Shown here: positions 915-60,632 of the stretch, piece by piece
Position numbering within the stretch: position 1 is the stretch's first letter
Layout: every line of letters begins with the position of its first letter
Origin: Chlorobium sp.
Lineage (GTDB): Bacteria > Bacteroidota > Chlorobiia > Chlorobiales > Chlorobiaceae
Reading direction: 5' to 3'
Length of the DNA: 64,000 nt
Assembly (NCBI GenBank): GCA_028277485.1
Contig: JANQGE010000057.1
Coordinates: forward strand, 5,709 to 69,708
Made by a program: the position numbers and the translations under genes
Notes under the pieces: model-generated
Told to the model about the DNA's origin: nothing
The model's input: only the letters and a program-made list of their open reading frames with translations
Database searches by the model: none

Positions 915-979
915 GGGCGTTTCAAAATGCTCCGTTCGCCTTGCTCTTGAACCGCTCATGACAATAAATAGAGGTGCCC
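915..979 (-). mobile_element. Short internally deleted copy of the MITE-like repeat (family A)
   Basis: TGCTCCGTTCGCCTTG...CGCTCATGACAATAAATAGAGGTGCCC matches the reverse complement of the 5' part of the 47979 copy. Confidence 0.7.
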
Positions 980-1046
980 TTTATATGGGCCGTGATAGGT
1001 GGCATATAATCTTACAAATTTAGGGACTTCTTTTGCATAAAATCAA

Positions 1047-1187
1047 GGGTATCTCTATTAATTTGTTGCACGTCCTGATTACTATCGTTGAGTGGTGCTT
1101 GAAATCCTGTCACGACAGTCGGAGCACTCCGGTTTTGTAGTTTATCCTGAGTTCTCAAGTCGCTCACGACAATGTAAGAAGGAGTGC
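1047..1187 (-). mobile_element. Degenerate full-length MITE-like repeat (family A)
   Basis: GGGTATCTCTATTAATTTGTTGCACGTCCTGATTAC...GAAATCC...CTCCGGTTT...CTCAAGTCGCTCACGACAAT is colinear with the 20310 copy. Confidence 0.75.
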
Positions 1188-1222
1188 TTTCAAAAGGAAT
1201 TTTTGTCGAATCAGCAGTGTAT

Positions 1223-2071
1223 ATGACCGTATCAGCAAAAAGATTCTGGTTTCTTGCGGCAATTGCAGGGTATCTTTGCTCACTGCAGCTTTTTGCAGCA
1301 AAACCGGTTTTTGCCGGCAGCCGTTCAACAGGCGACATTCTTTCAGATGACACGGCGCATTTCTTTCGTGATTTCAGGGATATTTTCTCTTCTCCCGTAC
1401 GTTTTGACGGCCGTGACTGGATAACGGTCGGTGCTGTTGCCGGTACTGTTGCCGCAGCGGTGGTATGGGCCGATGTTCCTGTCCGGAAATATATGCTTGG
1501 CAACCGTTCCAGGTTTGCCGATGACATCGTATCTGTCGGGGATTACTACGGTAGATTTTCTACCGGTTACTATCTGGGAACTGCTCTTTATCTTGCAGGC
1601 ATCGCCGGTGAAGACGACCAGGTGCGTCTTACCGGAAGGGCGGTGCTTGAAGCGCATACCTTTTCATTGCTGATCACCGGTGTCCTGAAAGCCGTTTCCG
1701 GGCGGTCGAGGCCCTGTCTTTTTGAAGGCAACAAGCGTTTCAACTGGTTTGAAACGGAAAACGGGAAATGGTCTCTCCCTTCCGGGCACTCGGCCGCAGC
1801 CTTTGCAATCTCCTCGGTTTTGAGCAAGAGGATCAATCGCCCATGGGCAACTGCGGGACTGTATGCCCTTTCAGGTATAACCGTTCTGGACCGTATCTAC
1901 GACGATAAACACTGGCTGTCCGATACCATACTCGGGGCGGCAATAGGAACCGCAGTAGGCCTGGCAGTGGGGCGGATGATCGATGAAGAAGAGAAAGAGA
2001 AGAAAAAGGGAGGATTGGAAACCTTGAATGAGCGGCCGGTTGAGCTGGTACATTTCTCGGTGAGCTTTTAA
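1223..2071 (+). CDS. PAP2-family phosphatase with N-terminal signal/hydrophobic segment
   Basis: KAVSGRSRP, SLPSGH and RIYDDKHWLSD motifs. ATG 1223 is preferred over GTG 1184, which lies inside a MITE end. Confidence 0.85.
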   Translation: MTVSAKRFWFLAAIAGYLCSLQLFAAKPVFAGSRSTGDILSDDTAHFFRDFRDIFSSPVRFDGRDWITVGAVAGTVAAAVVWADVPVRKYMLGNRSRFADDIVSVGDYYGRFSTGYYLGTALYLAGIAGEDDQVRLTGRAVLEAHTFSLLITGVLKAVSGRSRPCLFEGNKRFNWFETENGKWSLPSGHSAAAFAISSVLSKRINRPWATAGLYALSGITVLDRIYDDKHWLSDTILGAAIGTAVGLAVGRMIDEEEKEKKKGGLETLNERPVELVHFSVSF

Positions 2072-2090
2072 GGACGAATAAAACCCCTTT

Positions 2091-2759
2091 CTATGCTTTG
2101 TTTTTCGATAACCACTCAATGATTTCTTGTGGCTTTTCAACCAGTTTTTTTGCACCGCTTTCCACAAGCTCCTGCTCCGTTCTGAACCCCCAAAGTGCCC
2201 CGAGCGGGTACATGCCCGCAGCAGTTGCGGTCTGCATATCGACTTCGCTGTCACCTACGTAGAGGATATTTTCCGGAACGATGCCCATCATGTCAGCCAT
2301 CAGAAGGGCCCCCTGCGGGTCGGGTTTGTGTTTGATTCCGGGATGGTGCCCGGTGACCTGGTCAAATTTCCATGAGGAGAGCAGTGTCTCGACGCACAGT
2401 TTTGTGAATCTGTCAGGTTTGTTGGATAAAACGCCTTTTTTAATCAGAGCGGTGTCCAGCCAGTCGAGAAGTTCTTCAATACCGGGGTAGGGAATGGTAT
2501 GAGTTTTCCAGGTTTTGGCATAGTGTTCCTGCATCTCTTGCCGGAGCTTCTCAAGAAGTTCATGCCGGCTTTGCAGGTTTTTGGGAAGTGCTCTTCTGAC
2601 CAGGTCGTCCATGCCGTAGCCGACGAGGTAGCGGAACTCTTCTATGTTGTGCACCGGGAGCCCGTTGTTGTCCAGGACGCTGTTGAGCGTGTTTGCCAGG
2701 TCTTTAAGTGAGTCGAGAAGCGTGCCGTCCAGATCGAAAATAACCGCTTTGAAATTCAT
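2091..2759 (-). CDS. HAD-family hydrolase (phosphoglycolate phosphatase-like)
   Basis: FDLDGTLLDS motif I, SNK, KP and YVGDSEVD motifs. Confidence 0.9.
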   Translation of the reverse strand: MNFKAVIFDLDGTLLDSLKDLANTLNSVLDNNGLPVHNIEEFRYLVGYGMDDLVRRALPKNLQSRHELLEKLRQEMQEHYAKTWKTHTIPYPGIEELLDWLDTALIKKGVLSNKPDRFTKLCVETLLSSWKFDQVTGHHPGIKHKPDPQGALLMADMMGIVPENILYVGDSEVDMQTATAAGMYPLGALWGFRTEQELVESGAKKLVEKPQEIIEWLSKNKA

Positions 2760-2780
2760 GGGAGGAGTTTCTTGGAGGCG

Positions 2781-6682: not shown

Positions 6683-6825
6683 GGGCATCTCTATTAATTG
6701 TCGTGAGCGACCTGAAGACAAGGCGAACGGAGCGCAGAAACCGGAGTGTACACGGAGTACATGAAGATTTCGAGCACCGATCAACGAAGCAATTGAATCG
6801 CGGAGTAGATAAATAAGAGGGGCCC
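6683..6825 (+). mobile_element. Full-length MITE-like repeat (family A)
   Basis: GGGCATCTCTATTAATTGTCGTGAGCG...GCAGAAACCGGAGTGTACACGGAGTACATGAAGATTTCGAGCACCG...AGAGGGGCCC. Confidence 0.85.
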
Positions 6826-9497: not shown

Positions 9498-9563
9498 GGG
9501 CATCCCCCCCCTACCCGCCGAACGAAGCAATTGAATTTACTCGCGGAATAGGTAGAGGTGCCC
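9498..9563 (+). mobile_element. Short MITE-like remnant (family A) with both terminal repeats
   Basis: GGGCATC...AACGAAGCAATTGAA...CGCGGAATAGGTAGAGGTGCCC. Confidence 0.7.
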
Positions 9564-9590
9564 TTGTGAGATGGTTTTTTTGATACGGTT

Positions 9591-9608
9591 ATGTTACAAT
9601 TTTGTCAA
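9591..9608 (+). promoter_or_regulatory. Possible Pho box upstream of the second pstS
   Basis: ATGTTAC-AATT-TTGTCAA, 11-bp period, resembling the proteobacterial CTGTCAT-N4-CTGTCAC consensus. Confidence 0.35.
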
Positions 9609-9727
9609 CATTTTCCGATATGGATGAATAAGATCAAATCAAATTGTAACTACCACAACATACCAGTTCTGGTAGGTACTCGCTGTTATTTGTTACTTCA
9701 AATTCAAAAACAATTAAGGGGACGGAA

Positions 9728-10852
9728 ATGAAGAAAACTGTTACTTTGGCGGCCCTTTTTCTTTTACTGGCGGGCTCTTTGTCAGTGATCGGCTGCGGTC
9801 CTAAGGCAGATCAGGCCGGACAATCCGCACCTGAAACCGGTCAGGCCGGGGAAGGGGCACAATCTGCACGTGATTATATCAGCATCGTCGGTTCTTCGAC
9901 GGTTTATCCTTTTGCTACGGTCGTTGCCGAACAGTTCGGCAAAACAACTGAATTCAAAACCCCGAAGATTGAGTCTACCGGTTCAGGCGGTGGATTCAAA
10001 CTGTTCTCGGCCGGGGTTGGTATCGAACATCCTGATATTACCAATGCCTCACGCCGGATAAAAAAGTCCGAATGCGAGAAGTGTGCTGAAAACGGTGTGG
10101 CCGAAGTTGTGGAAATCAAGATCGGTTATGACGGCATTGTTATGGCCAATTCAAAGAAGACCGAACCATTCAAGCTGAGCCGCAAGGATATCTTCCTGGC
10201 CCTGGCAAAAGAGGTGCCTGATCCGAACGGGGCTGAAGGAAAACTGGTGCCGAATCCGTACAAAACCTGGAAAGACGTCAATCCGGCTTTGCCTGCAACA
10301 AGAATCGAGGTGCTCGGCCCTCCTCCGACATCAGGGACGCGTGATGCTTTCGTCGAGCTGGCTATGGAAGCCGGAGCGAAAAAGTTTGCGTGGTTAAAGG
10401 CGCTGAGAAAAGAGGATAAAAAAGCATTCAAGGAAATCAGCCATACTCTTCGTGAAGACGGCGCATTCATCGAAGCCGGTGAGAACGACAACCTGATTGT
10501 TCAAAAACTCGATGCAAACGCCGATGCACTGGGCATTTTCGGTTTCAGCTTCCTTGATCAGAATACCGACAAGATTCAGGGGGCCTTTGTCGATGATGTA
10601 CAGCCTGCATTCGGTGCAATTGCCGATGGTTCGTATCCTCTTTCCCGTCCACTGTTTTTCTATGTCAAGAAAGCCCATGTGGGAACTATTCCCGGTATCG
10701 CCGAATATCTTGCCGAGTTTACAGCAGAGAAAACATGGGGAGATGAAGGATACCTTACTGAAAAGGGTCTGATACCGATGCCGAAACAGGAAAGGGAGCA
10801 ATACGCGAAAGCTGCGCAGGAGCTGATCTCAATTTCCTGCGGTGAACTGTGA
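9728..10852 (+). CDS. pstS: Phosphate ABC transporter substrate-binding lipoprotein PstS (system B, proteobacterial type)
   Basis: Lipobox-like SVIGC; VGSSTVYPF, ESTGSGGG, GPPPTSGTRDAF and GIFGFSF motifs. Confidence 0.93.
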   Translation: MKKTVTLAALFLLLAGSLSVIGCGPKADQAGQSAPETGQAGEGAQSARDYISIVGSSTVYPFATVVAEQFGKTTEFKTPKIESTGSGGGFKLFSAGVGIEHPDITNASRRIKKSECEKCAENGVAEVVEIKIGYDGIVMANSKKTEPFKLSRKDIFLALAKEVPDPNGAEGKLVPNPYKTWKDVNPALPATRIEVLGPPPTSGTRDAFVELAMEAGAKKFAWLKALRKEDKKAFKEISHTLREDGAFIEAGENDNLIVQKLDANADALGIFGFSFLDQNTDKIQGAFVDDVQPAFGAIADGSYPLSRPLFFYVKKAHVGTIPGIAEYLAEFTAEKTWGDEGYLTEKGLIPMPKQEREQYAKAAQELISISCGEL

Positions 10853-10894
10853 TCTCTTTTAGAGGAGATTGAAGCAAGCTGTTTTTTTCCCGTT

Positions 10895-10930
10895 TTTTCG
10901 GGCCGGCGGGCTACTCTGCCGGCCCGAAAA
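10895..10930. terminator. Strong hairpin after the second pstS (terminator or mRNA-stabilising stem)
   Basis: TTTTCGGGCCGGCGGG-CTA-CTCTGCCGGCCCGAAAA. Confidence 0.6.
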
Positions 10931-11048
10931 TATTTTACTTTGCAGGATATATTTTCGAACTTTCGCTGCCTGACGGAAGTTGCCGGCCGGATGATGAAGG
11001 ATCGAATAATTGTAAACAGTTGTTACCACGGGAAACAATCGCAAATAC

Positions 11049-11894
11049 ATGCAAGAAGTACTGAAAAAGAAGTCCGCTGAAAAACGCATCCTGGCTCCCA
11101 GGGAAAGCCGTAAAACAATCGGGAATATCAATGTTCAGAACCCGCGAATGGTTTGTCGAAACGTTGACGTGTATTACGATGACAAGCAGGCTATTCGAAA
11201 TGTATCGATCGACATAGGGCGTAACGAGGTTCTTTCCATGATCGGCCCTTCGGGTTGCGGGAAATCAACCTTTCTGCGGTGTTTGAACCGGATGAACGAT
11301 ACCATTGACAGTTGCCGGGTGACCGGTGAAATTCTTTTTGACGGCAAGGATATCTATGACTCTTCTATAGATGTTGTTCCTCTCAGGGCTCAGATAGGTA
11401 TGGTTTTCCAGAAACCGAACCCCTTTCCGAAATCGATTTACGAAAATGTTGGCTGGGCCCCTAAAATCCATGGGCTGGTGGAGTCAAAGGCTGAAACGGA
11501 TGAACTCGTCGAATCCACTCTGCAGAAGGCCGGATTATGGAATGAGGTCAAAGATCGCCTGGATCAGCCTGGAACAGGCCTTTCCGGAGGGCAGCAGCAG
11601 CGTCTTTGCATAGCCCGTGCGATTGCGGTCAGCCCCGAAGTTATTCTCATGGATGAGCCCTGTTCGGCTCTCGATCCTATTGCAACTGCTAAAATCGAAG
11701 ATCTCATCGACGAGCTGCGGGAGCAGTATACCATTGTCATTGTAACGCATTCAATGCAGCAGGCTTCACGTGTATCCCAACGGACGGCCTTTTTCCATCT
11801 CGGAGACCTGATTGAAGTAGGAACCACAGAAAATATTTTCACCAAGCCGTCTCATCAACTAACCGAGGATTACATTACCGGACGGTACGGCTGA
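11049..11894 (+). CDS. pstB: Phosphate ABC transporter ATP-binding protein PstB (system B)
   Basis: GPSGCGKST Walker [20 protein letters not shown] and [10 protein letters not shown]. Confidence 0.95.
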
Positions 11895-11915
11895 TGTATC
11901 AAGCCCACAATTGTC

Positions 11916-13307
11916 ATGATGTCACCGTTAGCCCTGCTTCTGGCATTGCTCCTGCTATCCGCTGCCGGATATTTTATCGGGCGGAGAAAAGCGCTTTATG
12001 CAGCTGACAAGGCCGGCGGGCCGAACATGCTGCATTCCCGCCCCAACTATTATGGAGTACTGACCGCTCTCTGGTGTTGCCTGCCGGCTTTTTTCCTGTT
12101 TATTCTCTGGCTTGCCTTTGAACAAAGCATCATTACAAGCCTTATGGTGGCTGATCTTCCGCCCGGGCTTCGCAATCTTCCGCAGGAACGTCTCAGTTTG
12201 TTTGTAAATGACGCCCGGAACCTTGCGAGCGGAAATATCGTGTCGGGTGAGATCACCGCCGAGATGAGGGCGGCGGCGGCGCATTATGTAAATCTTCAGG
12301 GCATAGGCAAGATGATCGCGGGCGTGACCGTCCTGGTCGTTGCCATTGCAGGTATGTTGTTTGTGCATCGTCATATAACGCCCGAGCTCCGTGCCCGGAA
12401 CCAGGTAGAGAGGGCTATCATGGCCCTTTTGATTTTCTGCTCCACCATAGCGATTTTCACTACTATCGGCATCGTGCTTTCCGTGCTCTACGAAGCTGTC
12501 AGGTTTTTTCAACAGGTGCCGGTCACGGATTTCCTTTTCGGTCTTAAATGGAGCCCTCAAATGGCCATTCGGGAAGAACAGGTTGGTTCTTCAGGAGCTT
12601 TCGGAGCCATTCCGGTATTTGCAGGAACGATGCTTATCTCAGGCATCGCCATGATGGTGGCTGTTCCTATAGGGTTAATGTCAGCCATTTTTCTTTCGGA
12701 ATATGCCAATAAGCAGGTTCGGGCCGTAGCCAAGCCGCTGCTCGAAATCCTGGCGGGCGTTCCCACCGTAGTGTATGGTTTTTTTGCGGCTCTTGTTGTC
12801 GCACCCGTGATTCGTGCCGGAGGTTCGCAACTGGGAATCGACGTGTCTTCCGAAAGCGCCCTTGCGGCCGGGCTGGTGATGGGAATCATGATTATCCCGT
12901 TTGTCTCTTCTTTGTCGGATGATGTGATCAACGCTGTTCCCCAGTCTCTCAGGGATGGGGCCTACAGCGTCGGAGCTACCCGTTCTGAAACTATCAAACA
13001 TGTGCTTATTCCGGCGGCGCTGCCCGGAATTGTCGGAGGGATACTTCTTGCGGTATCACGAGCGATCGGTGAAACCATGATCGTGGTCATGGCTGCCGGC
13101 CTGTCAGCCAACCTTACGGCCAATCCGCTGCAGGCTGTGACGACCGTGACGGTGCAAATCGTTACGCTGCTGGTGGGTGACCAGGAATTCGACAGTCCGA
13201 AAACTCTTGCGGCATTTGCCCTGGGGCTCGTGCTGTTTGTTGTAACACTTTTTTTGAACATCATCGCCTTGACGGTGGTCAGAAAATATCGGGAGAGATA
13301 TGAGTAG
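11916..13307 (+). CDS. pstC: Phosphate ABC transporter permease PstC (system B, long N-terminal domain)
   Basis: LEILAGVPTVVYG, EAA-like loop SLRDGAYSVGAT and RAIGETM motifs. Confidence 0.93.
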   Translation: MMSPLALLLALLLLSAAGYFIGRRKALYAADKAGGPNMLHSRPNYYGVLTALWCCLPAFFLFILWLAFEQSIITSLMVADLPPGLRNLPQERLSLFVNDARNLASGNIVSGEITAEMRAAAAHYVNLQGIGKMIAGVTVLVVAIAGMLFVHRHITPELRARNQVERAIMALLIFCSTIAIFTTIGIVLSVLYEAVRFFQQVPVTDFLFGLKWSPQMAIREEQVGSSGAFGAIPVFAGTMLISGIAMMVAVPIGLMSAIFLSEYANKQVRAVAKPLLEILAGVPTVVYGFFAALVVAPVIRAGGSQLGIDVSSESALAAGLVMGIMIIPFVSSLSDDVINAVPQSLRDGAYSVGATRSETIKHVLIPAALPGIVGGILLAVSRAIGETMIVVMAAGLSANLTANPLQAVTTVTVQIVTLLVGDQEFDSPKTLAAFALGLVLFVVTLFLNIIALTVVRKYRERYE

Positions 13308-14610
13308 CGTCGCAAAGAAACCGTCAACCGGAGCGTCAGGAGGCTCAGGCCGGGAGCGCGCTATCGATATTGTCAACAGAAGACTGGCCAAAAGGTACCG
13401 GGTTGAAAAACGTTTCAGGTTTTATGGCCTGTGTTCCATTATAGCAAGCGTGGTATTTCTGGCGGTTCTTTTGACAAGTATTGTCGGTAACGGTTACACC
13501 GCATTTTTCCAGACCTACATTAAACTGGACGTGGCGCTTGATGCAACGATGCTGGACCGGGCAGATCCGGGCGGTTCGGATTATCAGGGGATAATCAAGA
13601 AGTCGATCAATAAGCTGTACCCAGAAGTCGAGGATCGCAGGAGCAAGCGGGAGCTTTACGCCCTGTTCAGTTCCGGAGCGGCTTTTCAACTGCGGAACAC
13701 TGTTATGGAAAATCCCGACCTGATCGGCACGACCGTAACGTTGTGGGTGCCGGCTGATGACGACGTGGATATGCTGATGAAAGGTCATATAAAAAGGGAT
13801 GTTCCGGAAAGCGGACGGCGTTTGAGCGACAAACAGCTTGGATGGATAGACCGGCTTGCGGTTGAGGATAGGATCGAGAAAAGGTTCAATGTGACGTTCT
13901 TTACTGCCGGGGATTCCAGGGAACCCGAACTGTCTGGGATATGGGGGGCGGTCAAGGGATCGTTTTTCACGCTTCTTATCACGCTCGTACTTTCGTTTCC
14001 GATCGGGCTGGCAGCTGCTGTTTATCTTGAAGAGTTTGCCCCGAAAAATCTTGCCACGGATTTTATCGAGGTCAACATCAACAACCTGGCGGCGGTACCG
14101 TCGATTGTTTTCGGGCTGCTCGGCCTGGCTGTTTTCCTCAACTTTTTCGGTATGCCCCGGTCCACCCCTCTGGTAGGGGGCCTGGTGCTGACGCTTATGA
14201 CGCTGCCGACCATCATTATCGCCAGCAGAGCTGCGCTTAAAGCCGTGCCTCCCTCTATCCGGGAGGCTGCATTGGGGGTCGGCTCTTCCAAAATGCAGAT
14301 GGTTTCCAGCCACGTTTTGCCGCTTGCACTCCCGGGAATGCTTACCGGCACGATCATCGGTATGGCACAGGCACTGGGAGAAACCGCACCCCTCTTGATG
14401 ATCGGTATGGTTGCTTTTATCGTGGACGTTCCCGGCGGGTTTACCGATCCCGCAGCCGTTATGCCGGTCCAGATATACCTCTGGGCGGACAGCCCGGAAC
14501 GCGCTTTTCTGGAGAGGACATCGGCGGCTATCATGGTACTGCTTGCCTTTTTGATCCTTATGAACGCTACTGCGGTCGTTATGAGGAAACGTTTTGAAAA
14601 ACGGTGGTAA
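13300..14610 (+). CDS. pstA: Phosphate ABC transporter permease PstA (system B, periplasmic insertion)
   Basis: INNLAAVPSIVFG, IREAALGVGSS and ALGETAPL; overlaps pstC by 8 bp. Confidence 0.93.
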   Translation: MSSVAKKPSTGASGGSGRERAIDIVNRRLAKRYRVEKRFRFYGLCSIIASVVFLAVLLTSIVGNGYTAFFQTYIKLDVALDATMLDRADPGGSDYQGIIKKSINKLYPEVEDRRSKRELYALFSSGAAFQLRNTVMENPDLIGTTVTLWVPADDDVDMLMKGHIKRDVPESGRRLSDKQLGWIDRLAVEDRIEKRFNVTFFTAGDSREPELSGIWGAVKGSFFTLLITLVLSFPIGLAAAVYLEEFAPKNLATDFIEVNINNLAAVPSIVFGLLGLAVFLNFFGMPRSTPLVGGLVLTLMTLPTIIIASRAALKAVPPSIREAALGVGSSKMQMVSSHVLPLALPGMLTGTIIGMAQALGETAPLLMIGMVAFIVDVPGGFTDPAAVMPVQIYLWADSPERAFLERTSAAIMVLLAFLILMNATAVVMRKRFEKRW

Positions 14611-14621
14611 AGGTGAATCAC

Positions 14622-14645
14622 GGCACGCCGCGAATTGAGGTGTCC
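14622..14645 (+). repeat. Minimal MITE-like remnant (family A ends only)
   Basis: GGCACGCCGCGAATTGAGGTGTCC resembles fused left and right ends of the element. Confidence 0.4.
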
Positions 14646-14771
14646 ATGAGAAGATGTTGCAGTTTTGTAACAAGAGCGGCATTGTCAACTTGAGGAGGGG
14701 AGTATACATTATAAAACAAAATCAAGGCTCGTGTCTGATCGATGCATTTTTAGTTTTAACGTGGGTCCTCT

Positions 14772-15935
14772 ATGGCAGAAACAACTTTGGTTGGGGGGAA
14801 AAAATCAGAAGCCTTTGTGCTTAGCCCCGAAAAGCTGCGCAGGCAGAGAATTGCAAAGTTTATCGGTGAAGGTTTTCTTTTGACCGTAGCGTCGTTTGTC
14901 GCTATTGTCGTGCTGTTTATTTTCTACTTTGTTGCCGTTGATGCAATTCCGTTTTTCCAGCAGCGCGGTTTTGAGGAGTTTTTTACAAGCACCGGCTGGT
15001 ATCCTGCTGATGATCCCGGGGAATTCGGGGCGCTTGCCATTATTTACGGCAGCGGGATGGTGACGATAGGATCGGCGCTCATTGCCGTGCCTCTTGGCAT
15101 CTCCGCTGCAATATGTCTTAGTGATGTTCTGCCTTTTTCGATAAGACAATACGCCAAGCCGGTTATCGAAATGCTTGCGGCAATTCCTTCCGTAGCCTAC
15201 GGTTTTTTCGCGCTGGTGATTTTCGCCCCGTTACTGCAAAACCATGGGGGGCCTATACTGATGTGGGCATGGTGGCTGATTGCGGGTCCTTTTGTTCTTC
15301 TGGCGGTCGTTGTTGCCGGTGATCTGCTGACTTCAAGACAGACAGACGAGTCGAGACGCAAGACAATGCGTACAATGCTCACGGGAGTATTGGGTGTTAT
15401 TGCGGTGGTGTTCCTTTACTGGGTAGGAAAGACACTCAATGCGATCCAGATTCTCAGCGGAACAAACGCTCTCAACGTATCGCTTATCCTGAGTTTCATG
15501 GCCCTGCCGACAATAGTCAGTGTTTCCGAAGACTCCCTGCAAGCTGTCGGGCGGGAGTTGAGAGAGGGCAGTTACGCGCTTGGTGCAACAAGAGCCGAAA
15601 CTCTTGTGAGAACAGTGCTTCCGGCGGCCAGCAGCGGTATTCTGGCTGCGGTTATTCTTGGCATCATGCGGGCAATTGGTGAGACGATGGTTGTGTGGAT
15701 GGCCTCGGGCAACTCTTCGCATATTCCGGATCCGTGGTATAACTATCTTGATTCAATAAGAACGCTTACGGCAACCATTGCCGGTGATATGGGTGAAGCC
15801 GATCAGGTTACCGGTTCGGCACGCTATCATGTGCTGTTTGCCATGGGGCTGTTGCTGCTTGTTTTCAGTTTTATCAGCAACCTTGTCAGCGAAAGAATAG
15901 TCATCAGGCAGAGGAAGATACTTTCCGGTGAATAG
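14772..15935 (+). CDS. pstC: Phosphate ABC transporter permease PstC (system A)
   Basis: IEMLAAIPSVAYG, LREGSYALGAT and RAIGETM motifs; two extra TM segments. Confidence 0.93.
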   Translation: MAETTLVGGKKSEAFVLSPEKLRRQRIAKFIGEGFLLTVASFVAIVVLFIFYFVAVDAIPFFQQRGFEEFFTSTGWYPADDPGEFGALAIIYGSGMVTIGSALIAVPLGISAAICLSDVLPFSIRQYAKPVIEMLAAIPSVAYGFFALVIFAPLLQNHGGPILMWAWWLIAGPFVLLAVVVAGDLLTSRQTDESRRKTMRTMLTGVLGVIAVVFLYWVGKTLNAIQILSGTNALNVSLILSFMALPTIVSVSEDSLQAVGRELREGSYALGATRAETLVRTVLPAASSGILAAVILGIMRAIGETMVVWMASGNSSHIPDPWYNYLDSIRTLTATIAGDMGEADQVTGSARYHVLFAMGLLLLVFSFISNLVSERIVIRQRKILSGE

Positions 15936-15963
15936 CTCCTCTCTATCACTTAACTCCTGAACC

Positions 15964-17310: not shown

Positions 17311-17316
17311 AAAGTA

Positions 17317-18177
17317 ATGCAGATGACTGTTGAAGAAAAAGATACGGACAAGGTCGCGTCAAAAAGTGGTGCGACTCGTGATATTTTTCTTCCTCCTGAG
17401 CGTCAGAGGGTCAGGGATGGCGGAAATCCTCATGTTATGGCAAAGAACTTCTCTATTTTCTACGGGGATTTCGAAGCGGTCAAAAAGGTAAGTGCGGATA
17501 TTCTCTCAAAGTATGTGACGGCTATTATCGGGCCCAGCGGCTGCGGGAAAAGCACATTTCTTCGGGCCATCAACCGCATGAATGATCTTATTCCTTCCTG
17601 TTATACAACCGGCACGCTGATGTTTGACGGGGAGGATATATACGGCAGGTATACCGATGAAGTCCAGCTCAGAAAGAAAATCGGGATGGTTTTTCAGAAA
17701 CCCAATCCTTTCCCGAAATCGATTTTTGACAACATTGCATACGGTCCGCGCCTTCATGGCGTAAAAGATAAAAAGGTTCTTGAAGAGATTGTTGAAAAAA
17801 GCCTTCGCAAAGCCGCGTTGTGGGATGAAGTGAAGGACCGCATGGAGAGAAACGCCCTGGGGCTCAGCGGCGGTCAGCAGCAGCGCTTATGTGTTGCAAG
17901 AACACTTGCCGTGGGGCCTGAAATTCTGCTGCTCGATGAGCCTACCTCGGCCCTGGACCCGAAGGCAACCGCAAAAATCGAAGATCTTATCGAGGAATTA
18001 CGAGGGAGTTATACTATACTTATCGTTACTCATAACATGCAGCAGGCTTCCCGTGTCTCCGACTACACCATGTTTTATTACGAAGGTGATCTTGTGGAAT
18101 ATGCTCCGACAAAGCAGCTCTTTACCAATCCCCGGGATCAGGTGACGGAAGATTACATTACCGGAAGGTTCAGCTGA
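17317..18177 (+). CDS. pstB: Phosphate ABC transporter ATP-binding protein PstB (system A)
   Basis: [28 protein letters not shown] and [10 protein letters not shown]. Confidence 0.95.
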
Positions 18178-18197
18178 AAACAAAAACTCTACTTTCT

Positions 18198-18887: not shown

Positions 18888-19020
18888 CCCCGGTTTTATT
18901 TTTTTCTTGCAATTGACCCGTTCACTCAGCTAAATTATCACCACCTAACCGGCATAATTCACCAAAGGAATAAGAGGGAGAGCGAGGAGTAAGAAAGTGC
19001 CAGGTGTCAGGCGGGAAAAA

Positions 19021-19170
19021 ATAATCGGGGATCGGGTTTCGGGGTCGAAAGGGAATCCGTTGGCAATCGGCAATGTTAACAGATGTTGCCATTGTGCTAA
19101 CGAGCTATCATCATAGCCATACTATAATTCGATTCCCGATACCGATAGCGACGCCGAGCCCCGAAAGAAA
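19021..19170. repeat. Family B repeat: converging hexamer arrays (ATCGGG)n ... (CGATAC)n-CGAAAG
   Basis: ATCGGGGATCGGGTTTCGGGGTCGAAA and TTCGATTCCCGATACCGATAGCGACGCCGAGCCCCGAAAG; similar arrays at 55431-55520 and 62651-62720. Confidence 0.65.
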
Positions 19171-31739: not shown

Positions 31740-31745
31740 GCCTGC

Positions 31746-31987: not shown

Positions 31988-32011
31988 TTTAATGTGAAAC
32001 GTGCACAAAAC

Positions 32012-33265: not shown

Positions 33266-33310
33266 GTAAAAGGAAAGAATCTGAACGGCGGCAAGCGACC
33301 GATAACGGGC

Positions 33311-46336: not shown

Positions 46337-46415
46337 GGGCACCTCTATATTCCGCGAGTTTCAATTGCGCTTCGTTAAGCGAATAGAAGGGGGTTTCACT
46401 CATGGCAAGGTGCCC
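46337..46415 (-). mobile_element. Short MITE-like repeat (family A)
   Basis: GGGCACCTCTATATTCCGCGAGTTTCAATTGCGCTTCGTT...AGGTGCCC. Confidence 0.7.
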
Positions 46416-46630: not shown

Positions 46631-47992
46631 ATGAAAATTACCATATTTGGTTCAGGATATGTAGGCCTGGTGACAGGCGCATGCTTTGCTGAAGTGGGTA
46701 ACGATGTGCTTTGTGTGGACATTGATGAGGAAAAAATCCGGCGCCTGAAGCAGGGAGACATTCCGATCTATGAGCCTGGCCTGGAAGATATGGTGATTGA
46801 AAACAGCCGGGAAGGGCGTCTGCGGTTCACATCCGATCTGGAAGAGGGGGTACACCTCGGGCTGTTTCAGTTCATAGCTGTCGGGACACCGCCGGATGAG
46901 GATGGTTCGGCCGACCTGCGTCATGTATTGAGTGTTGCAGAGAGCATCGGCAGAAACATGGAGGACTACCGCATTATCGTCGATAAATCGACCGTTCCGG
47001 TCGGTACCGCTGATCTGGTAAAAGAGAGAGTGGGTGCCATCCTGGAAGAGCGGGGAATATCGATAGATTACGATGTTGTCTCGAATCCGGAGTTTCTCAA
47101 GGAAGGTGACGCTGTCAGTGATTTCATGAAGCCTGAGCGTATCATTGTCGGGGTGGATAACCCGCGGACAAAAGAGCTGTTGAGGAACCTCTACGCACCG
47201 TTCAACCGCAGCCATGAACGATTTATAGCGATGGATGTCCGCTCTGCGGAACTGACAAAGTATGCGGCAAACGCGATGCTTGCCACAAAAATCAGTTTCA
47301 TGAACGAGATCGCAAATATAGCCGAGCGTGTAGGGGCGGATGTCGAAGCCGTCCGTCATGGCATAGGTTCGGACTCCCGGATTGGTTTTTCATTTATCTA
47401 CCCCGGCGTCGGTTACGGTGGCTCTTGTTTTCCAAAAGACGTGCAGGCCCTTGAACGCACGGCAAAAAAACACGGCTATGATGCCAGGATTCTCCAGGCG
47501 GTCGAGGAAGTCAACCTTGATCAGAAAGCTTCCCTGGTGCGCAAAATCAAGGATCATTTCAAAGGAGACCTGAAGGGAAAGACCATTGCATTGTGGGGTC
47601 TGGCATTCAAGCCCAATACCGATGATATGCGTGAGGCACCGAGCCGGAGAATTCTCGAAGAGCTGTGGGCGGCCGGTGCGGCGGTCAGGGCCTACGACCC
47701 TGTTGCCATGGATGAGGCGCGGAGGATCTACGGGGAAAGGGAAGACCTGGTGCTTGCCGAGACTCCTGACGATGCGCTCAAGGGGGCGGATGCTCTGGCA
47801 ATTGTGACCGAGTGGATGGTGTTCAGGAGCCCTGATTTTGATGTTGTAAAACAGGAACTCAACGCCCCGGTAATCTTTGACGGCCGCAATATCTACAATC
47901 CCGATCTTATGGAGCAGCTCGGTTTTACCTACTACTCGATAGGCAGAAGGCCAAGAGGAGCGGCCTTTGAAAACCTTAGGGCACCTCTATAA
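46631..47992 (+). CDS. ugd: UDP-glucose 6-dehydrogenase
   Basis: [26 protein letters not shown] and [10 protein letters not shown]. The last codons (RAPL*) lie inside a MITE end. Confidence 0.96.
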
Positions 47993-48119
47993 ATTGTCGT
48001 GAGCGTCTTGAGTACGAGGCGGACGGAGCGCAGAAACCGGAGTGTACACAGAGTACACAAGGATTTCGAGCACCGGCGAACGAAGTAATCAGGGCGCGCA
48101 ACAAATTAATAGAGGTGTC
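47979..48119 (+). mobile_element. Most intact MITE-like repeat (family A reference copy, 141 bp)
   Basis: TA|GGGCACCTCTATAAATTGTCG...CAACAAATTAATAGAGGTGTC; long imperfect terminal inverted repeats; between convergent ugd and thiD. Confidence 0.9.
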
Positions 48120-48121
48120 AT

Positions 48122-50221: not shown

Positions 50222-50554
50222 CTAATCAATGTTCTCGAGTATCAACTGAGCGGCTTTTTTCCCGCTGAGGAACATCCCTCCAAAGATAGGGCCCATCCTG
50301 AAGCCGCCCATCGCATTGTTGGCCGCCATACCCGAGGCATAAAGCCCGGGGTAGAGGCTTTTGGTAAACAGCATGCCGCCGCCGGGAGCCAGCTTGCTTT
50401 CGAAAATAGCAACTTTTTTGCCGGCAAGGGCAAGTTCTTTGCCGGCGATCATGCCTGAAGGTCCTGCCCCGACAACAGCAGCATCGAGGGAAAGAGAGTC
50501 TTCGAGTTTATTGAAAAAACTCCTGATAATGGATTTCGAGATTTTTTCTTCCAT
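50222..50554 (-). pseudogene. thi4: Internally deleted thiazole synthase Thi4 (110 aa: N- and C-termini fused in frame)
   Basis: N-terminal [11 protein letters not shown]...KLAPGGG joined directly to [20 protein letters not shown]...[17 protein letters not shown]; more than half of a normal ~250-aa Thi4 is missing. Confidence 0.85.
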
Positions 50555-50630
50555 GTGATTTCTGCTTATAGTTACGTAGTAAGCAGGCGGGCTGAAACGG
50601 CAAGAAAAAAAGCGGATAAAAACGCGGAAC

Positions 50631-50718
50631 GTTTCATCTTTTTCCTTGCGTCAGTATTACCTGCATCAAGTTATATGGGTTTAATCTCAGCCGCGTGAGC
50701 AGCACCCCAAAGAGAAAC
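50631..50718 (-). promoter_or_regulatory. TPP riboswitch
   Basis: Minus strand GGGGTGC...GCTGAGATTAAACCC-ATATAACTTGATGCAGGTAATACTGACGCAAGGAAA, with P1 GTTTCTCTTT/AAAGATGAAAC; upstream of the thi operon. Confidence 0.92.
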
Positions 50719-50908
50719 TGTAGTTGTTTCTACGCTTGTACAATAAGAATTTTTCCCATAGTAACAAAGTGAATCTTTCCCGGGCAGGTGTCCTTGTTGT
50801 TTGAACTGTTCCAGCATCATATCGGCAGTTCTTGTGGCGGGGAAGGGTAGGAGGTATGACAAAAAGCCTTACATTTAAAAAAATCATTCACATCTAAATA
50901 CCTTCGCC

Positions 50909-51550: not shown

Positions 51551-51667
51551 AGGCACCTCTATTTATTTATTCCGCGCTTCAATTGTTTCGTTGATCGGAT
51601 AGAAAGGGGTTTCTGCACTCCGTTCGCCTCGCACTTGAATCGCTCATGACGATAAATAGAGGCGCCC
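51551..51667 (-). mobile_element. MITE-like repeat (family A), internally deleted
   Basis: AGGCACCTCTATTTATTTATTCCGCG...CTCCGTTCGCCTCGCACTTGAATCGCTCATGACGATAAATAGAGGCGCCC. Confidence 0.8.
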
Positions 51668-52148: not shown

Positions 52149-52269
52149 GGGCACCTCTTACGTTGTCGTAAGTCTCTTGAGGGTAAGCCGGAGTGCCCCG
52201 ACAAGCCGGGAGGTGAGGATTTCAAGCGCTGCCTGACGAAGCGTCAGGGCGCGCAACTGCAGAGGCGTC
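52149..52269 (+). mobile_element. Degenerate MITE-like repeat (family A variant)
   Basis: GGGCACCTCTTACGTTGTCGT...GAGGATTTCAAG...GACGAAGCGTCAGGGCGCGCAACTGCAGAGGCGTC. Confidence 0.7.
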
Positions 52270-54651: not shown

Positions 54652-54714
54652 GGGTACCTCTAAATATACGCCACACATCTGAAGTATTTTTCAATTGTAA
54701 ACAGTAACAGCAGT

Positions 54715-55338: not shown

Positions 55339-55377
55339 CGCCGGCTTTTCTGCTGAATCGTCGGGTTTCGGGAGAGT

Positions 55378-55773
55378 AGTGACAAGTAACGAGTGACAAG
55401 GGGGGGGGGCCAGCAGTTCTTGAATCGGAAATCGGGGTCGGTATCGGGTTTCGGGGTCGAAATGGGAGTTTGGCAGAGTGTTTCGATACCGATAGCGATA
55501 GCGGCGGCGAACTCCGAAAGAGAAGAGACGGACAAAAATCCTGGTTCTTCTTGCAGCGTGTAACAGTGGTAACGAAACGTGAAGGAAGAAGATACTCGAT
55601 TCAAAAGGATGCAGCCAAACAATAAGTCTGAAATAAATGCCGGCAGTTCTTGAGTCGGAAATCGGGGTCGGATTGAATCAGTTGGCAGTTTTCAGTAGGC
55701 AGTTGGCAAAAGAATAGTGACAAGTAACAAGTGACAAAGTGCTTTAAATCAACTTGTCACTCGTCACTGTTAC
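55378..55773. repeat. Nested repeat cassette: heptamer patches, 30-bp direct repeats and family B core
   Basis: AGTGACAAGTAAC(G/A)AGTGACAA at 55378 and 55716; GCAGTTCTTGA(A/G)TCGGAAATCGGGGTCGG at ~55412 and ~55642 (230 bp apart); core 55505-55642 is similar to 62701-62836. Confidence 0.8.
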
Positions 55774-56775: not shown

Positions 56776-57003
56776 GGTGAGGTGTTTTTTTCGCATTGAA
56801 TGCTTAATATCCGGTGTCGGGTGCCCGGAATGTGCAACGCTTATTGTAAGGGAATATATAAAAGCGTTAGAGATATAAAAGAGGTGCCCGTGAAACATCC
56901 GGGGCGGTGAGGAAGGGGAGATAGTCTTTTATTTTTGTGCTTTTTTTGTTATACTTAAAGCTATCCATTTTTAGCTCTTGCATGGTGAATAAAGTCTTGT
57001 GCG

Positions 57004-58393: not shown

Positions 58394-58819
58394 TTGGTTA
58401 AAATAAGACTTAGAAGAGCTGGAAGAAAAAAGCTGCCTTTTTACCAAATCGTGGCTGCCGATGCGCGCGCCCCGAGAGACGGTAAGTTCCTTGAGGTGAT
58501 CGGTCACTACCAGCCGACGGCAAAGCCCCATGCAATTACAATAGACAAGGAGCGGACGGCTTACTGGCTCGGGGTCGGTGCGCAGCCGACAACAACCGTA
58601 CGCAGTCTTATCCGTGCTACCGGTCTTCTGCATGAGCTGAACATGAAGCGCCGGGGCCGGAGTGATGAAGAGGTGACTGCTGAGATGGAAAAATGGCAGG
58701 CTCGTGAAACCGAAAGAAGACAAAAAAGGCTTGCGGTCAAAACACGTCGCCGTCAGGCGAAAAAAGCAGCAGAAACCCAGGAGCCGGCAGTTTCAGCCAA
58801 AGCGGAGGGTGACGGGTAA
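58394..58819 (+). CDS. rpsP: 30S ribosomal protein S16 (C-terminally extended)
   Basis: [34 protein letters not shown]. Confidence 0.97.
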
Positions 58820-58873
58820 GCTTTTGCCGTCAGGCTTGTGCTATATTCAAAACCGTTTTTTTGAAGTGTTCCT

Positions 58874-59383
58874 ATGAAGGAGGAGCTGTACCTGGCAGGC
58901 AGAATCCTTAAGCCGAAAGGCCTGAAGGGCGAAGTGAAGGTGTTGCCGGTTACGGATTTTCCTGAGAGTTTTCTTGACCGAAAGGTCTTTTATGTTGGGA
59001 AAACCGAGGAGGAGGCGATGTGCTGCCGGGTTCTCCACGCGGTTTTGCGCAAAGGGTTCGCTTATCTTCTTTTTTCGGGTATAAACAGCAGAGAGAAGGC
59101 AGAAGCAATAGCGGGACATAAGGTGTATGTGTCGGCTGATGAATTAATTCCGCTTTCTCCTGACAGGGCGTATCTTCATGAGTTGAGAGGTTTGAAGGTA
59201 CTCAGTGAATCTCGCGAGGAGGTCGGTATCCTGAGTGACGTTCTGAAAATGCCGGCTCATGAGGTTTATGAGGTACAGTACGGCATACGCAGGGTTCTGA
59301 TCCCTGCAATCGAGGAATTTGTTGAGGAGATTGATATAGAAAAAGGATATATGGTGCTCAAAAGGTTCGACGAGTTCCTGTAA
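58874..59383 (+). CDS. rimM: Ribosome maturation factor RimM
   Basis: [18 protein letters not shown] and [10 protein letters not shown]; position in the rpsP-rimM-trmD-rplS operon. Confidence 0.95.
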
Positions 59384-59427
59384 ATCCCCGAGCTGTTCTT
59401 TTGCAATTTGTTGAAAAATCTCTGCTG

Positions 59428-60138
59428 ATGGCGCCGTTGCGGATTGATGTCATTTCGGTTATTCCCGGTTTTTTTGAATCGCCCCTCAACAAGGGGATAT
59501 TCGGCATAGCCCGGAAAAAAGAGCTGGTCGATATACATGTTCATAATCTGCATGATTACGGTTTGGGCAGATACAAGCAGGTCGATGACACTCCTTTCGG
59601 AGGCGGTGCTGGGATGGTAATCAGGCCCGAACCGGTGTTTGCCTGTATTGAAAAGCTTTTGGCCGAAAGGTCTTACGACGCGGTGATTTTTATGACACCG
59701 GACGGCCGTAAACTTGATCAGCCCACGGCAAACCGGCTTTCAGTAACGAAAAATCTGATTATATTGTGCGGCCATTATAAGGCCGTTGACGAAAGGGTCC
59801 GGAAAAAACTTGTCACCATGGAGTTGTCGGTTGGCGACATTGTGCTTTCAGGCGGTGAAATTCCAGCTCTGCTTTTAATGGATGCAGCAATAAGGCTTAT
59901 TCCCGGCGCTCTGGGTGACAGTGAATCAGCCTTAACCGATTCGTTTCAGACAGGTATACTCGATTGCGAGTATTATACCCGGCCGGCTGAATTCAGGGGG
60001 ATGCGTGTCCCCGATGTGCTGTTGTCGGGTCATCATAAAAAAATCGAAGAGTGGAAGAACAGGAATGCTCTGGAACGTACAGCGGAAAGGCGGCCTGACC
60101 TTCTTGACGGGGATATAGAAGAGTTAAAGGAAAAATAA
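59428..60138 (+). CDS. trmD: tRNA (guanine37-N1)-methyltransferase
   Basis: [33 protein letters not shown] and YTRP. Confidence 0.97.
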
Positions 60139-60153
60139 AGAATAAACACTATC

Positions 60154-60519
60154 ATGGATCAGTTAATTCAGTTGGTCGAGGCAGCGCAGGAACGGAGCGA
60201 CTTGCCGGAAATTTATCCGGGAGATACGGTGAGAATGCAGATGAAAGTTATCGAAGGCGAGAAAGAGCGTCTGCAGGCTTTTGAAGGGGTCGTTATCAGT
60301 GAAAGAGGAACCGGCGCATCGAAAACCGTAACCGTTCGCAAGATTTCCAACGGCATCGGGGTCGAGCGTATAATTCCTTTGAACTCGCCGAACATTGAAA
60401 ACATCAAGGTGCTGAGAAGCGGTAAGACCCGCCGTGCGAAACTGTTCTATCTCAGGAAGCGCACGGGTAAGGCGGCTTTGAAGGTCAAGGAGCGCAAGGC
60501 TGCGCCATCCTCAAATTGA
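60154..60519 (+). CDS. rplS: 50S ribosomal protein L19
   Basis: PGDTV...[11 protein letters not shown]...GVERI...RRAKLFYLR. Confidence 0.98.
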
Positions 60520-60632
60520 GGGCATTCTCTGCGTTGTCGTGAGTCCGGGGTGTGTCGGGGTCAACTGCGGACATGCGGATTTCGGGCTCCGCTCGACGAA
60601 GCAATCGAGCAGTGGAGTACATAGAGGTGCCC
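60520..60632 (+). mobile_element. Degenerate MITE-like repeat (family A) directly after the rplS stop
   Basis: GGGCATTCTC...TTGTCGTGAG...GGATTTCGGGCTCCG...GACGAAGCAATCGAG...ATAGAGGTGCCC|TTAA. Confidence 0.7.

Follow-up and report, generated by a model that had tools for sequence, protein, structure and literature searches.

Profile, word and local alignment searches revealed a 142-bp element in the window, that is, the whole 64-kb stretch of Chlorobium sp. DNA analysed here, with about 10 clear copies and another 8 that are fragments (Table 1). The terminal 11-mer GGGCACCTCTA, with up to one mismatch allowed, was found 19 times against 0.51 expected (shuffle maximum, 3), and a profile built from genome copies gave 12 loci at E ≤ 0.01. 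The abundant repeat of about 142 bp reported in the initial annotation is therefore real, and its lists of near-full copies (1047, 6683, 20310 and 47979) and deleted copies were essentially right. The lone ends that it placed at 25069, 54652 and 56881 are bare 11-mers only; the last of them (56879–56889) is probably a decayed remnant of the element, since the orthologous spacer of the congener G005 carries a 116-nt copy.

The copy at 47979–48120 occupies the spacer of two convergent genes, ugd and a thiD-like gene, and ugd now takes its last 4 codons and its stop codon (47990–47992) from it; the copy at 60520–60632 lies directly 3′ of a TGA stop. The full-length copy at 20310–20452 and the piece abutting it form a single 198-nt insertion absent from G005, and at the edge corresponding to the fragment at 31931–31987, a full copy is present in G005, along with 2.4 kb of additional DNA.

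Table 1. Copies, fragments and end-like sequences of the element in the window
Feature	Position	Strand	Profile locus (E ≤ 0.01)	Evidence and remarks
Partial copy, left arm (consensus 1–59)	919–979	-	928–979	Exact terminal 11-mer at 969–979
Diverged near-full copy	1047–1188	-	1049–1182	nhmmer E 2e-17; end GGGTATCTCTA at 1047
Full-length copy, variant right arm (...AAGCAATTGAATCGCGG...)	6683–6820	+	6683–6820	nhmmer E 1e-37; repeats D1, I9
Right-end fragment (consensus 95–142)	9515–9563	+		Local alignment; fragments also in orthologous spacer of G005
113-nt copy of the 117-nt class, CCTTTCCTATCCG in place of the apex	19322–19434	+	19322–19433	nhmmer E 6e-26
Full-length 143-nt copy	20310–20452	-	20310–20451	nhmmer E 2e-42; site empty in G005
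Abutting 55-nt piece of a second element	20453–20507	.	20453–20485	Exact terminal 11-mer at end
Diverged copy	23748–23873	+	23758–23873	nhmmer E 3e-15; copy shared by G005 at orthologous place
Exact terminal 11-mer standing alone, with no convincing adjoining element	25069–25079	+		11-mer scan, local alignment
Left-arm fragment	31745–31789	-	31743–31785	Profile and local alignment
Right-arm fragment	31931–31987	-		Repeats I10, I21; local alignment
Partial copy, exact end followed by variant-type subterminal sequence	46337–46393	+		Local alignment; G005 spacer without copy
Full-length 142-nt copy, 96% identity to consensus	47979–48120	+	47979–48119	nhmmer
117-nt-class copy	51551–51667	-	51552–51667	nhmmer E 2e-25
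Diverged copy	52149–52257	+	52149–52257	nhmmer E 9e-9
Lone end-like 11-mer, 1 mismatch, weak	54652–54662	+		11-mer scan, local alignment
Lone end-like 11-mer, 1 mismatch	56879–56889	-		116-nt copy in orthologous spacer of G005
Diverged 113-nt copy, both ends	60520–60632	+	60564–60631	Both ends by local alignment; flanks TTGA/TTAA; site empty in G005

The whole 2.5-Mb assembly, from a member of the Chlorobiaceae that is probably a Prosthecochloris, contains about 450 merged loci of this inverted-repeat element, equal to 1.7% of the DNA, with 252 copies retaining both ends and about 1000 element ends in all; 58 of the 244 contig ends break inside it. The element is small (86–143 nt), non-coding and dispersed, and is bounded by imperfect terminal inverted repeats (TIRs) of about 20 bp (GGGCACCTCTATAAATTGTCGTG... 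/ ...CAACAAATTAATAGAGGTGCCC). What had been described as internal deletions are in fact three size classes (142, 117 and 86–90 nt), each of them amplified, which differ in the hairpin apex. Among 225 assessable copies, 218 were intergenic and 7 fell inside crude ORF calls. The copies assessed genome-wide show no bias towards sense or antisense placement beside adjacent genes (about 100 against 91) and favour no type of spacer. Nearest-neighbour identity among copies peaks at 94–97%, with few at 98% or above; this gives no sign of very recent bursts, with the caveat that identical copies would be under-assembled.

Comparison of the flanks of 245 copies found identical 4-mers on both sides in 106, where shuffles gave 12.3 on average and 22 at most, and 4-mers agreeing with at most one mismatch in 157; no enrichment was seen in these copies for flanks of 2, 3 or 5 bases. 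The flanks are a 4-bp target site duplication (TSD) of AT-rich sequence, TAAA, ATAA, TCAA and TTAA among others, and not the TA/TAA noted at first. The ugd/thiD-like spacer is filled in the source genome only and is empty in all 17 congeners compared. Between the window and G005, insertions specific to each were found, one of these differences being resolved base by base with a TSD of TCAA, and copies at orthologous sites were seen to decay into fragments.

A search for an insertion sequence (IS) with the same ends identified copies of 1290–1333 bp (about 1.3 kb) in relatives (L094:1312-2613, L131:1386-2699 and others). Their transposase of 352–356 amino acids matches the IS5-family model NF033581 with 280 bits (cut-off 140), as well as PF01609 and PF05598. 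The IS ends read GGGCACCTCTA..., and the duplications flanking them are TAAA, TTAA, TCAA, TGTA, GAAT and AAAA, so the IS and the element share a TSD length of 4 bp and AT-rich targets. The terminal 11–21 nt of the two are identical or nearly so; two differing IS ends match two differing ends of the element over 17–21 nt, the ends of element subfamilies, for example ...AAAAAGTGTC, have counterparts in other IS variants, and the IS resident in the complete genome G041 has the end GGGCGTCTCTAAAAAGTCAA, matched there by the element ends GGGCATCTCTAAAAAGTGTC. Of 122 Chlorobiaceae genomes, 74 carry the element and 51 the IS transposase, each being present in all 3 genera, while 16 genomes from other families of the order gave neither the element nor a close match. 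Beyond about 20 nt, the IS copies seen have subterminal DNA unrelated to the interior of the element, so that simple loss of the inside of a known IS copy does not account for the element.

As initially reported, the window encodes no transposase, and neither the partner IS type nor any PF01609 type was found in the whole assembly. The 70 contig ends at which an end of the element lies all run on as the element and none as the IS, and mobilisation within this genome is therefore putative. The assembly contains no contig shorter than 1523 bp, and a 1.3-kb contig into which IS copies had collapsed could thus have been removed by filtering.

The element is bounded by TIRs and flanked by a 4-bp duplication, its insertions are polymorphic between species, and an IS with matching ends resides in relatives. 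[quoted passage not shown] Its imperfect TIRs of about 20 bp, starting GGGCACCTCTA, enclose an imperfect hairpin of about 105 nt that encodes nothing. In the proposed mechanism, the DDE transposase of the 1.3-kb IS would recognise MITE ends that match those of the IS and move, or have moved, the MITE in trans. By cutting AT-rich targets (TAAA, ATAA, TCAA, TTAA) with a 4-bp stagger, it would then leave the 4-bp duplication around each insertion. We infer that mobilisation is due to the transposase of this IS family and took place in this lineage. With no IS copy in the assembly, the swarm would either be immobile at present or depend on an IS lost from the assembly.

The interior of the element is predicted to fold at -61 kcal/mol (z = -8). 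In the hairpin, 97% of cells are paired and double changes occur at 15 of 28 pairs, against 4–10 in shifted controls, and G-U cells exceed A-C cells 187:48 on one strand. The interior is not filler but a modular hairpin kept paired by compensatory changes. Repeats homologous to its sequence of about 112 nt occur in 94 of the 401 Pseudomonadota genomes sampled (23%), in nearly all E. coli and, sporadically, in other Bacteroidota. The proteobacterial copies are flanked by other IS5-type ends and duplications, so that the core occurs with at least 3 unrelated IS5-type end sets and TSD types: GGGCACCTCTA ends with 4-bp AT-rich duplications in Chlorobiaceae, CAGGCCGTTGAAAAA ends with 4-bp YTAR duplications in G693, and GAGCCTATCCCAGTAGG ends with 3-bp TNA duplications in G585 and E. 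coli. YTAR is the classical IS5 duplication, and the target used in Chlorobiaceae (TAAA, ATAA, TCAA) is looser. The apex CAGAAACCGGAaTGTAC-loop-GTACATGAGGATTTCGAGCACCG, which the MITE shares with the proteobacterial IS5-type MITEs, is nearly invariant across phyla, whereas the stems on either side co-vary; its apparent invariance is inflated because the proteobacterial copies were gathered with a 21-mer.

The core resembles the Rfam family sX9 (RF02228), whose model aligns on the minus strand to one arm and the apex, only half of the hairpin. Genome-wide, the model finds 126 places at E ≤ 0.01, of which 2 exceed the gathering score of 44 bits (46.4 and 44.1 bits); the window copy at 47983–48058 falls below that score with 25 bits, and proteobacterial copies reach 88.7 bits. 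The sX9 RNA was seen as a 75-nt band on Northern blots of Xanthomonas (Schmidtke et al. 2012, PMC3300014) and is listed in Rfam as an sRNA gene, not catalogued as a repeat or MITE. As the core resembles sX9 and is carried on several kinds of IS5 ends in many Proteobacteria, the comparison suggests that many annotated sX9 sRNA genes are MITE copies.

These features raise the alternative that the essential unit is the hairpin module itself, with IS5-type ends only as its vehicle. Copies would then be kept because the module benefits the host or the element's own spread, acting for instance as a structured RNA or single-stranded DNA, whether as an sRNA of the sX9 type or as a site for processing, termination or a host factor. 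The exchange of ends, the apex with its co-varying stems, an apex variant in G693 that keeps the fold, the G-U excess on one strand and the sX9 transcript all point this way, as does a core copy in the qseG-qseE spacer that is fixed in E. coli (5425 of 5426 genomes). Against it, the 117-nt and 86–90-nt classes, about 115 copies that lack the conserved apex, were amplified in the source genome, where the apex is evidently not needed for mobility. The lack of bias in orientation or spacer type, the decay at orthologous sites, the 21-mer collection of the proteobacterial copies and an Rfam sX9 strand opposite to that favoured by G-U pairs also speak against it, and we consider this explanation doubtful. 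Equally tentative is the related proposal that the core is a functional, structure-constrained module repeatedly joined to the ends of different IS5 subgroups in at least 2 phyla. If it were true, what is widely annotated as the sX9 sRNA family would be cargo carried by a MITE superfamily of pan-bacterial extent, of which RPE1 may be a diverged branch, and the core would either help itself to move or persist, or serve the host as an RNA element.

The core had first been likened to the Rickettsia palindromic element RPE1, and the element might then represent that family in Chlorobiaceae. Both are palindromic repeats of roughly 100–150 bp. The RPE1 profile TIGR01045 gave no match to the six frames of the consensus (E ≤ 10), to the six-frame source genome (E ≤ 1), or to peptides corrected for a 1-nt indel and ten other module variants, and it exceeded its 30-bit cut-off in none of the 401 Pseudomonadota genomes, including the 94 core carriers. 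Its sole signal among these, a sub-threshold match of 22–22.7 bits in G551 (profile positions 17–35; E 4e-4 per genome, 7e-5 per library scan), falls exactly on a core copy, where the core model R1 scores 44 bits (E 4e-16), and RPE1 and the core may therefore be distantly related. RPE1 is known for in-frame insertion within genes, whereas the Chlorobiaceae copies are intergenic, and it is not known to have TIRs, a TSD or an IS partner. Membership of the element in the RPE1 family is thus unsupported, and we regard it as unlikely.

REPs are palindromes of 20–40 bp without target duplication. A REP/BIME-like palindrome, static or RAYT-mobilised, was considered because GTAG or CGTC-like tetranucleotides (CGTAGCGAGCG or CGTCGCGAGCG) stand at the foot of the proteobacterial module, but it is very improbable given the 4-bp TSD, the length of 142 bp, the TIRs of about 20 bp, an IS partner that is a DDE and not a Y1 element, and the second GTAG missing from Chlorobiaceae copies. 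GTAG and CGTC are the tags of the two REP superfamilies, and CGTC repeats have been reported in Chlorobi (PMC3733652). Close parallels to a MITE of this kind are Correia/NEMIS of Neisseria, ERIC, RUP and Nezha, which are likewise hairpin-forming, TIR-bounded, intergenic elements of 100–160 bp, occur in hundreds of copies that make up 1–2% of a small genome, and can lengthen genes or take over their ends as well as interrupt assemblies (PMC3733652, PMC2759123). All are unrelated in sequence, Correia, ERIC and RUP have a TA duplication in place of the 4 bp seen here, and for the Chlorobiaceae element, in contrast to these systems, a cognate IS family can be named.

Neither this MITE family nor its IS5-family driver was found in the searchable literature, and the present analysis names the family and its likely driver for green sulfur bacteria. 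The element accounts for a quarter of the assembly breaks and 1.7% of the DNA of the source genome, has remodelled gene ends, as in ugd, whose stop codon now lies within it, and marks many species-specific differences among otherwise collinear Prosthecochloris-type genomes. It is a MITE of a familiar type with an unusually conserved, modular, cross-phylum core, and offers a concrete, testable case of a MITE in which conservation is higher in the interior than at the ends.

The window holds 19 matches to the 11-mer GGGCACCTCTA with at most one mismatch, where 0.5 would be expected. Repeat finding aligned the full copies at 79-92% identity in both orientations, and a profile built from the genome's copies recovered 12 loci in the window, to which shorter pieces were added by local alignment. 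By these searches the copies of the putative MITE family had been placed essentially correctly in the initial annotation; the three 'lone ends' listed there are bare 11-mers only, and the one at 56879 is the site of a full copy in a congener. The 142-bp consensus is GGGCACCTCTATAAATTGTCGTGAGCGACTTGAGTACGAGGCGGACGGAGCGCAGAAACCGGAGTGTACACAGAGTACATGAGGATTTCGAGCACCGACCAACGAAGTAATCAGGGCGCGCAACAAATTAATAGAGGTGCCC. The window is positions 5709-69708 of contig C86 in an assembly of 2.51 Mb and 122 contigs. Across this assembly, BLAST matches merged into 451 loci that together cover 42 kb (1.7% of the genome), and 58 of the 244 contig ends fall inside an element. About 1000 element ends are present, and both ends were found in 252 copies. 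There are three size classes, with about 90 copies of 142 nt, about 80 of 111-119 nt and about 32 of 85-92 nt, the shorter classes having the apex ...GGAGTGTACACAGAGTACATGAGGATTTCGAGCACCG... swapped for CTCTCCTATCCG or wholly missing. Since each size class is multi-copy, forms reduced to the ends and basal arms were still able to spread. The identity of a copy to its nearest neighbour peaks at 94-97%.

On either strand the element folds as a single long imperfect hairpin, at -61 and -58 kcal/mol (z = -8 and -7). Over 92 distinct full copies, 97% of the cells of the consensus helix are paired, versus 23-45% with shifted partners, and 15 of the 28 helix pairs show changes on both sides; pair 31-113 is UA in 39, CG in 28 and AU in 10 copies, and pair 36-108 is AU in 42 and GC in 39.

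The four bases flanking the element are identical in 106 of 245 copies, compared with a mean of 12.3 and a maximum of 22 in 1000 shuffles; no enrichment was seen in these copies for identity at 2, 3 or 5 bases. The duplicated 4-mers vary (TAAA/TTTA 28, ATAA/TTAT 25, TCAA/TTGA 11, TTAA 7, and others), and are therefore a target duplication and not element sequence. Comparison of orthologous sites, proposed at the outset for defining the duplication, revealed both filled and empty sites. The copy between the convergent ugd and thiD-like genes provides ugd with its stop and final four codons and is present only in the window genome; in 17 of 17 congeners the gap between these genes measures -13 to +56 bp and is without the element. 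Over 80 kb, the congener G005 is collinear with the window (about 80% identity), and insertions there differ in both directions (Table). One G005 insertion was resolved to the base, ...AATC TCAA (element) TCAA AAAGGC..., and the empty site in the window reads ...AATCTCGGCAAGGC.... For other strains of the same species, exact-protein look-up returned only one short Logan contig, ending at the MITE.

Table. Locations of element copies, partner insertion sequences and neighbouring features
Feature	Window position	Other location	Remark
Copy between ugd and thiD-like genes	47979-48120		Missing from G005
Copy	20310-20507		Missing from G005
Copy	60520-60632		Missing from G005
Copy	46337		Probably also missing from G005
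Copies or remnants in both genomes	Spacers at 9515, 19322, 23748, 31931, 56879	G005	
G005-only insertions		G005 contig C56: 84133, 126859, 130286, 141715	
Junction	31741-32005		2.4 kb extra DNA in G005
Junction	33204-33336		10 kb extra DNA in G005
Nested second Pst system	9578-18946	G005:C56:71783-81164	Collinear, 84% identity
331-nt repeat beside MITE at 19322	18930-19260	G000:C6 ~33870-34215, beside another MITE	92% identity
Second dispersed repeat	55373-55737, 62699-62815	Contig ends C8, C31, C99, C122	
thi4 length difference	50366-50375	G005:C56:126052-126496	~444 bp more in G005
TPP riboswitch	50626-50719		thi4 lies under it
Partner IS, locus L094		L094:1312-2613	1302 bp, 352-aa transposase
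Partner IS, locus L131		L131:1386-2699	
E. coli core copy, locus L322		NZ_CP023820.1 2994988-2995098	qseG-qseE (glrK) spacer; 76.8 bits; unannotated; full module, IS1031-like ends
Weak TIGR01045 match		G551:C4:4979-5035	22 bits

Several other features of the collinear region were observed. At the first junction in the Table, MITE copies or fragments form the bounds in both the window and G005, and a MITE-associated deletion or insertion is a possibility. The second Pst system is collinear in the two genomes and the spacer to its left holds MITE fragments in G005 too; thus the arrangement is older than the divergence of the two species, and a recent MITE-mediated insertion does not explain it. 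The length difference at thi4 fits an internal deletion of that gene in the window genome. The TPP riboswitch is the only feature of the window that passes the Rfam gathering thresholds.

Autonomous copies were sought in the genome as end pairs 0.4-6 kb apart, and none was found among the eight inspected, each of which proved to be two separate MITEs with ordinary genes in between. Behind lone ends, the genome has repeated DNA only as one 331-nt and one 264-nt pair. The 331-nt repeat at 18930-19260, which lies beside MITEs, could be either a flank that was duplicated or a longer, composite repeat. At several places genome-wide, for example GGGCACCTCTATTAAGGGCACCTC (5 places), a new element end directly follows the 11-nt end and TTAA. 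As the terminal inverted repeat holds the preferred targets TAAA, TTAA and ATAA, elements may insert into each other, leaving 'lone ends'. A second dispersed repeat, CCTGAATAATTCA..., followed by ATCGGN hexamer arrays and AGTGACAAG motifs, abuts GGGCACCTCTA ends at several contig ends, and the two families may be nested or have common insertion sites.

PF01609 transposases are present in relatives of the window genome, and several of the loci have GGGCACCTCTAA beside the gene. The transposase of L094 scored 280 bits against NF033581 (IS5 family; cut-off 140), and its homologues carry the name 'IS5 family transposase' in public records. It was found in 51 of 122 Chlorobiaceae genomes, covering all three genera. 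Copies in five species of at least two genera (L121-L125, from G015, G077, G064, G016 and G018) are 98-100% identical, which indicates recent horizontal spread of the IS. The 16 full-length IS copies are 1290-1333 bp long, have ends starting GGG(C/A/G)A(C/T)CTC(T/G)A, and are flanked by 4-bp duplications of the same kind as those of the MITE (TAAA, TTAA, TCAA, TGTA, GAAT and AAAA). The two IS ends are unlike each other and each matches one MITE end: the IS 3′ end GGGCACCTCTATAAATTGAC corresponds to the MITE left end GGGCACCTCTATAAATTGTC, and the IS 5′ end GGGCACCTCTATTTATT to the MITE right end GGGCACCTCTATTAATT. Other IS variants match the ends of MITE subfamilies, e.g. GGGCACCTCTAAAAAGTGTC. 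In the complete genome G041, with four intact IS copies, the MITE ends (GGGCATCTCTAAAAAGTGTC) track the resident IS end (GGGCGTCTCTAAAAAGTCAA); the MITEs of this genome are flanked by duplications of ATAA and TCAA, to which the complete genomes G067 and G073 add ATGA, TTAT and TTTA.

The partner IS was thus found in relatives, and the earlier observation that the window has no transposase extends to the whole assembly: PF01609 gave 0 matches, tblastn with the partner transposase gave nothing below E 3.5, blastn with 12 IS variants returned one 41-nt chance match only, and contig ends carried no IS-type subterminal sequence. The shortest contig of the assembly is 1523 bp and the IS in public assemblies usually forms its own contigs of about 1.3 kb, so a collapsed IS contig could have been discarded. 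Based on the target duplications, the empty sites and the matching IS ends, we conclude that the initial annotation was right to read the element as a MITE, with a probability of about 0.9 for this kind of element; it would be mobilised in trans by an IS5-family transposase that leaves the 4-bp duplications. Activity of the transposase in this particular genome is less certain than that.

The MITE was found in 74 of the 122 Chlorobiaceae genomes, in all three genera, and in none of the 16 genomes taken from the order's other families. The cultivable relatives Prosthecochloris aestuarii and Chlorobaculum tepidum probably have copies too. The window genome had by far the most first-look candidates (436, the next genome having 209). 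The window encodes SecA, PurL and other housekeeping genes, and its 1232-aa GlcD-like protein is 85% identical to a protein of a 'Chlorobium sp.' MAG and 75% to one of Prosthecochloris ethylica. Judged by such matches, the window proteins are those of Chlorobiaceae, and for the assembly we infer the genus Prosthecochloris. Of the 225 copies that could be assessed on a crude ORF map, 218 lie between genes. They occupy divergent, tandem and convergent spacers roughly in proportion to how frequent these are; no spacer type is favoured, nor is either orientation relative to genes. Copies directly after stop codons, described as frequent in the initial annotation, are indeed common: 33 of 191 gene tails have a copy no more than 5 nt away. 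These positions are explained by the AT-rich, TAA-containing targets and by selection against insertion into genes, with no function needed. A literature search on green sulfur bacteria found nothing relevant on MITEs or on the terminal or core sequences of the element; Delihas's RU-2 and RU-3 repeats differ from it in sequence.

To follow the core, the hairpin interior of about 112 nt, the exact apex 21-mer GTACATGAGGATTTCGAGCAC was searched for in a set with one genome per species, and matched Chlorobiaceae and about 35 beta- and gammaproteobacterial genomes (Pseudomonas, Gallionella, Sideroxydans, Methylophilus, Thiobacillus, Andreprevotia, Halomonas, Methylovulum and others), with about 0.3 chance hits expected in 6e11 bases. 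Alignment revealed that the whole interior is homologous, comprising C-GT(A/C)G-CGAGCG, a variable co-varying stem, CGGAGCGCAGAAACCGGAaTGTAC-loop-GTACATGAGGATTTCGAGCACCG, a variable stem and then CGCGCAGTAG, and that the terminal repeats differ between the Chlorobiaceae and proteobacterial elements. A covariance model of the core, R1, matched over its full length in 94 of 401 evenly drawn Pseudomonadota genomes and, among 301 sampled Bacteroidota, in 46 Chlorobiaceae and 6 other genomes. One to four copies are present in 5425 of 5426 complete E. coli genomes. The full module in the qseG-qseE spacer, which bears IS1031-like ends and is not annotated, is there in almost all of these genomes. Among plasmids, matches were confined to chromosome-like E. 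coli, Klebsiella and Aeromonas records.

In the proteobacterial genome G693 the ends are CAGGCCGTTGAAAAA with flanks CTAA, TTAG, TTAA, CTAG and GTAA, which for the most part conform to the YTAR duplication classical for IS5. In the proteobacterial genome G585 and in E. coli the ends are GAGCCTATCCCAGTAGG with 3-bp TNA flanks, as in other IS5 subgroups. The proteobacterial copies, too, are MITEs of the IS5 type. Apexes of different make-up occur on the same ends and basal arms in G693 (lengths 141, 143, 173, 206, 236, 258 and 370 nt), one variant keeping the fold with a different sequence. Together with the three size classes in Chlorobiaceae, these variants show that the interior is modular.

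The Rfam model of sX9 (RF02228) aligns to one arm and the apex on the minus strand, scoring 25 bits in the window, 31.6 bits in Gallionella and up to 88.7 bits in Pseudomonas copies. In the window genome it has 126 matches at E<=0.01, and two of these exceed the 44-bit threshold. sX9 was defined by a 75-nt Northern-verified RNA of Xanthomonas (PMC3300014), is among the 20 Rfam sRNAs most often annotated (PMC9029176) and is multi-copy in Xanthomonas campestris (PMC10924375); in this literature it is not named as a repeat or MITE. By model alignment, the core of the element resembles the sX9 family and is common to IS5-type MITEs across phyla.

A role of its own for the core, as functional cargo, is a tentative reading and less likely than not. 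It is favoured by compensatory changes in the core stems, by there being, on one strand, more G-U than A-C cells (187:48) and by an apex that is invariant across phyla and end types, although this invariance is overstated because copies were gathered by an exact 21-mer from the apex itself; weighing on the other side, against a role in mobility, are the amplification of apex-less classes in the window genome, the absence of orientation bias among copies and their decay at old sites. The likeness to the Rickettsia palindromic element RPE1 noted initially is not supported as membership, since its profile TIGR01045 stayed below cut-off in every test, with no match on the consensus in all frames (E<=10), the six-frame window genome (E<=1), peptides corrected for a 1-nt indel or ten other element variants, and 0 of the 401 Pseudomonadota genomes over the cut-off. 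The single weak match in those genomes, in the proteobacterial G551 (22.7 bits and E 7e-5 on rescan; profile positions 17-35), sits exactly on a core copy scoring 44 bits (E 4e-16), and a distant relation of RPE1 to the core is possible. A protein search with the G551 ORF gave no candidates and tblastn against plasmids nothing relevant; literature searching for an RPE-1 consensus brought up papers on the cell line of that name and no others. The element is instead a member of the IS5-type MITEs, and it is their sX9-like core, common to different phyla, that is the part worth following.
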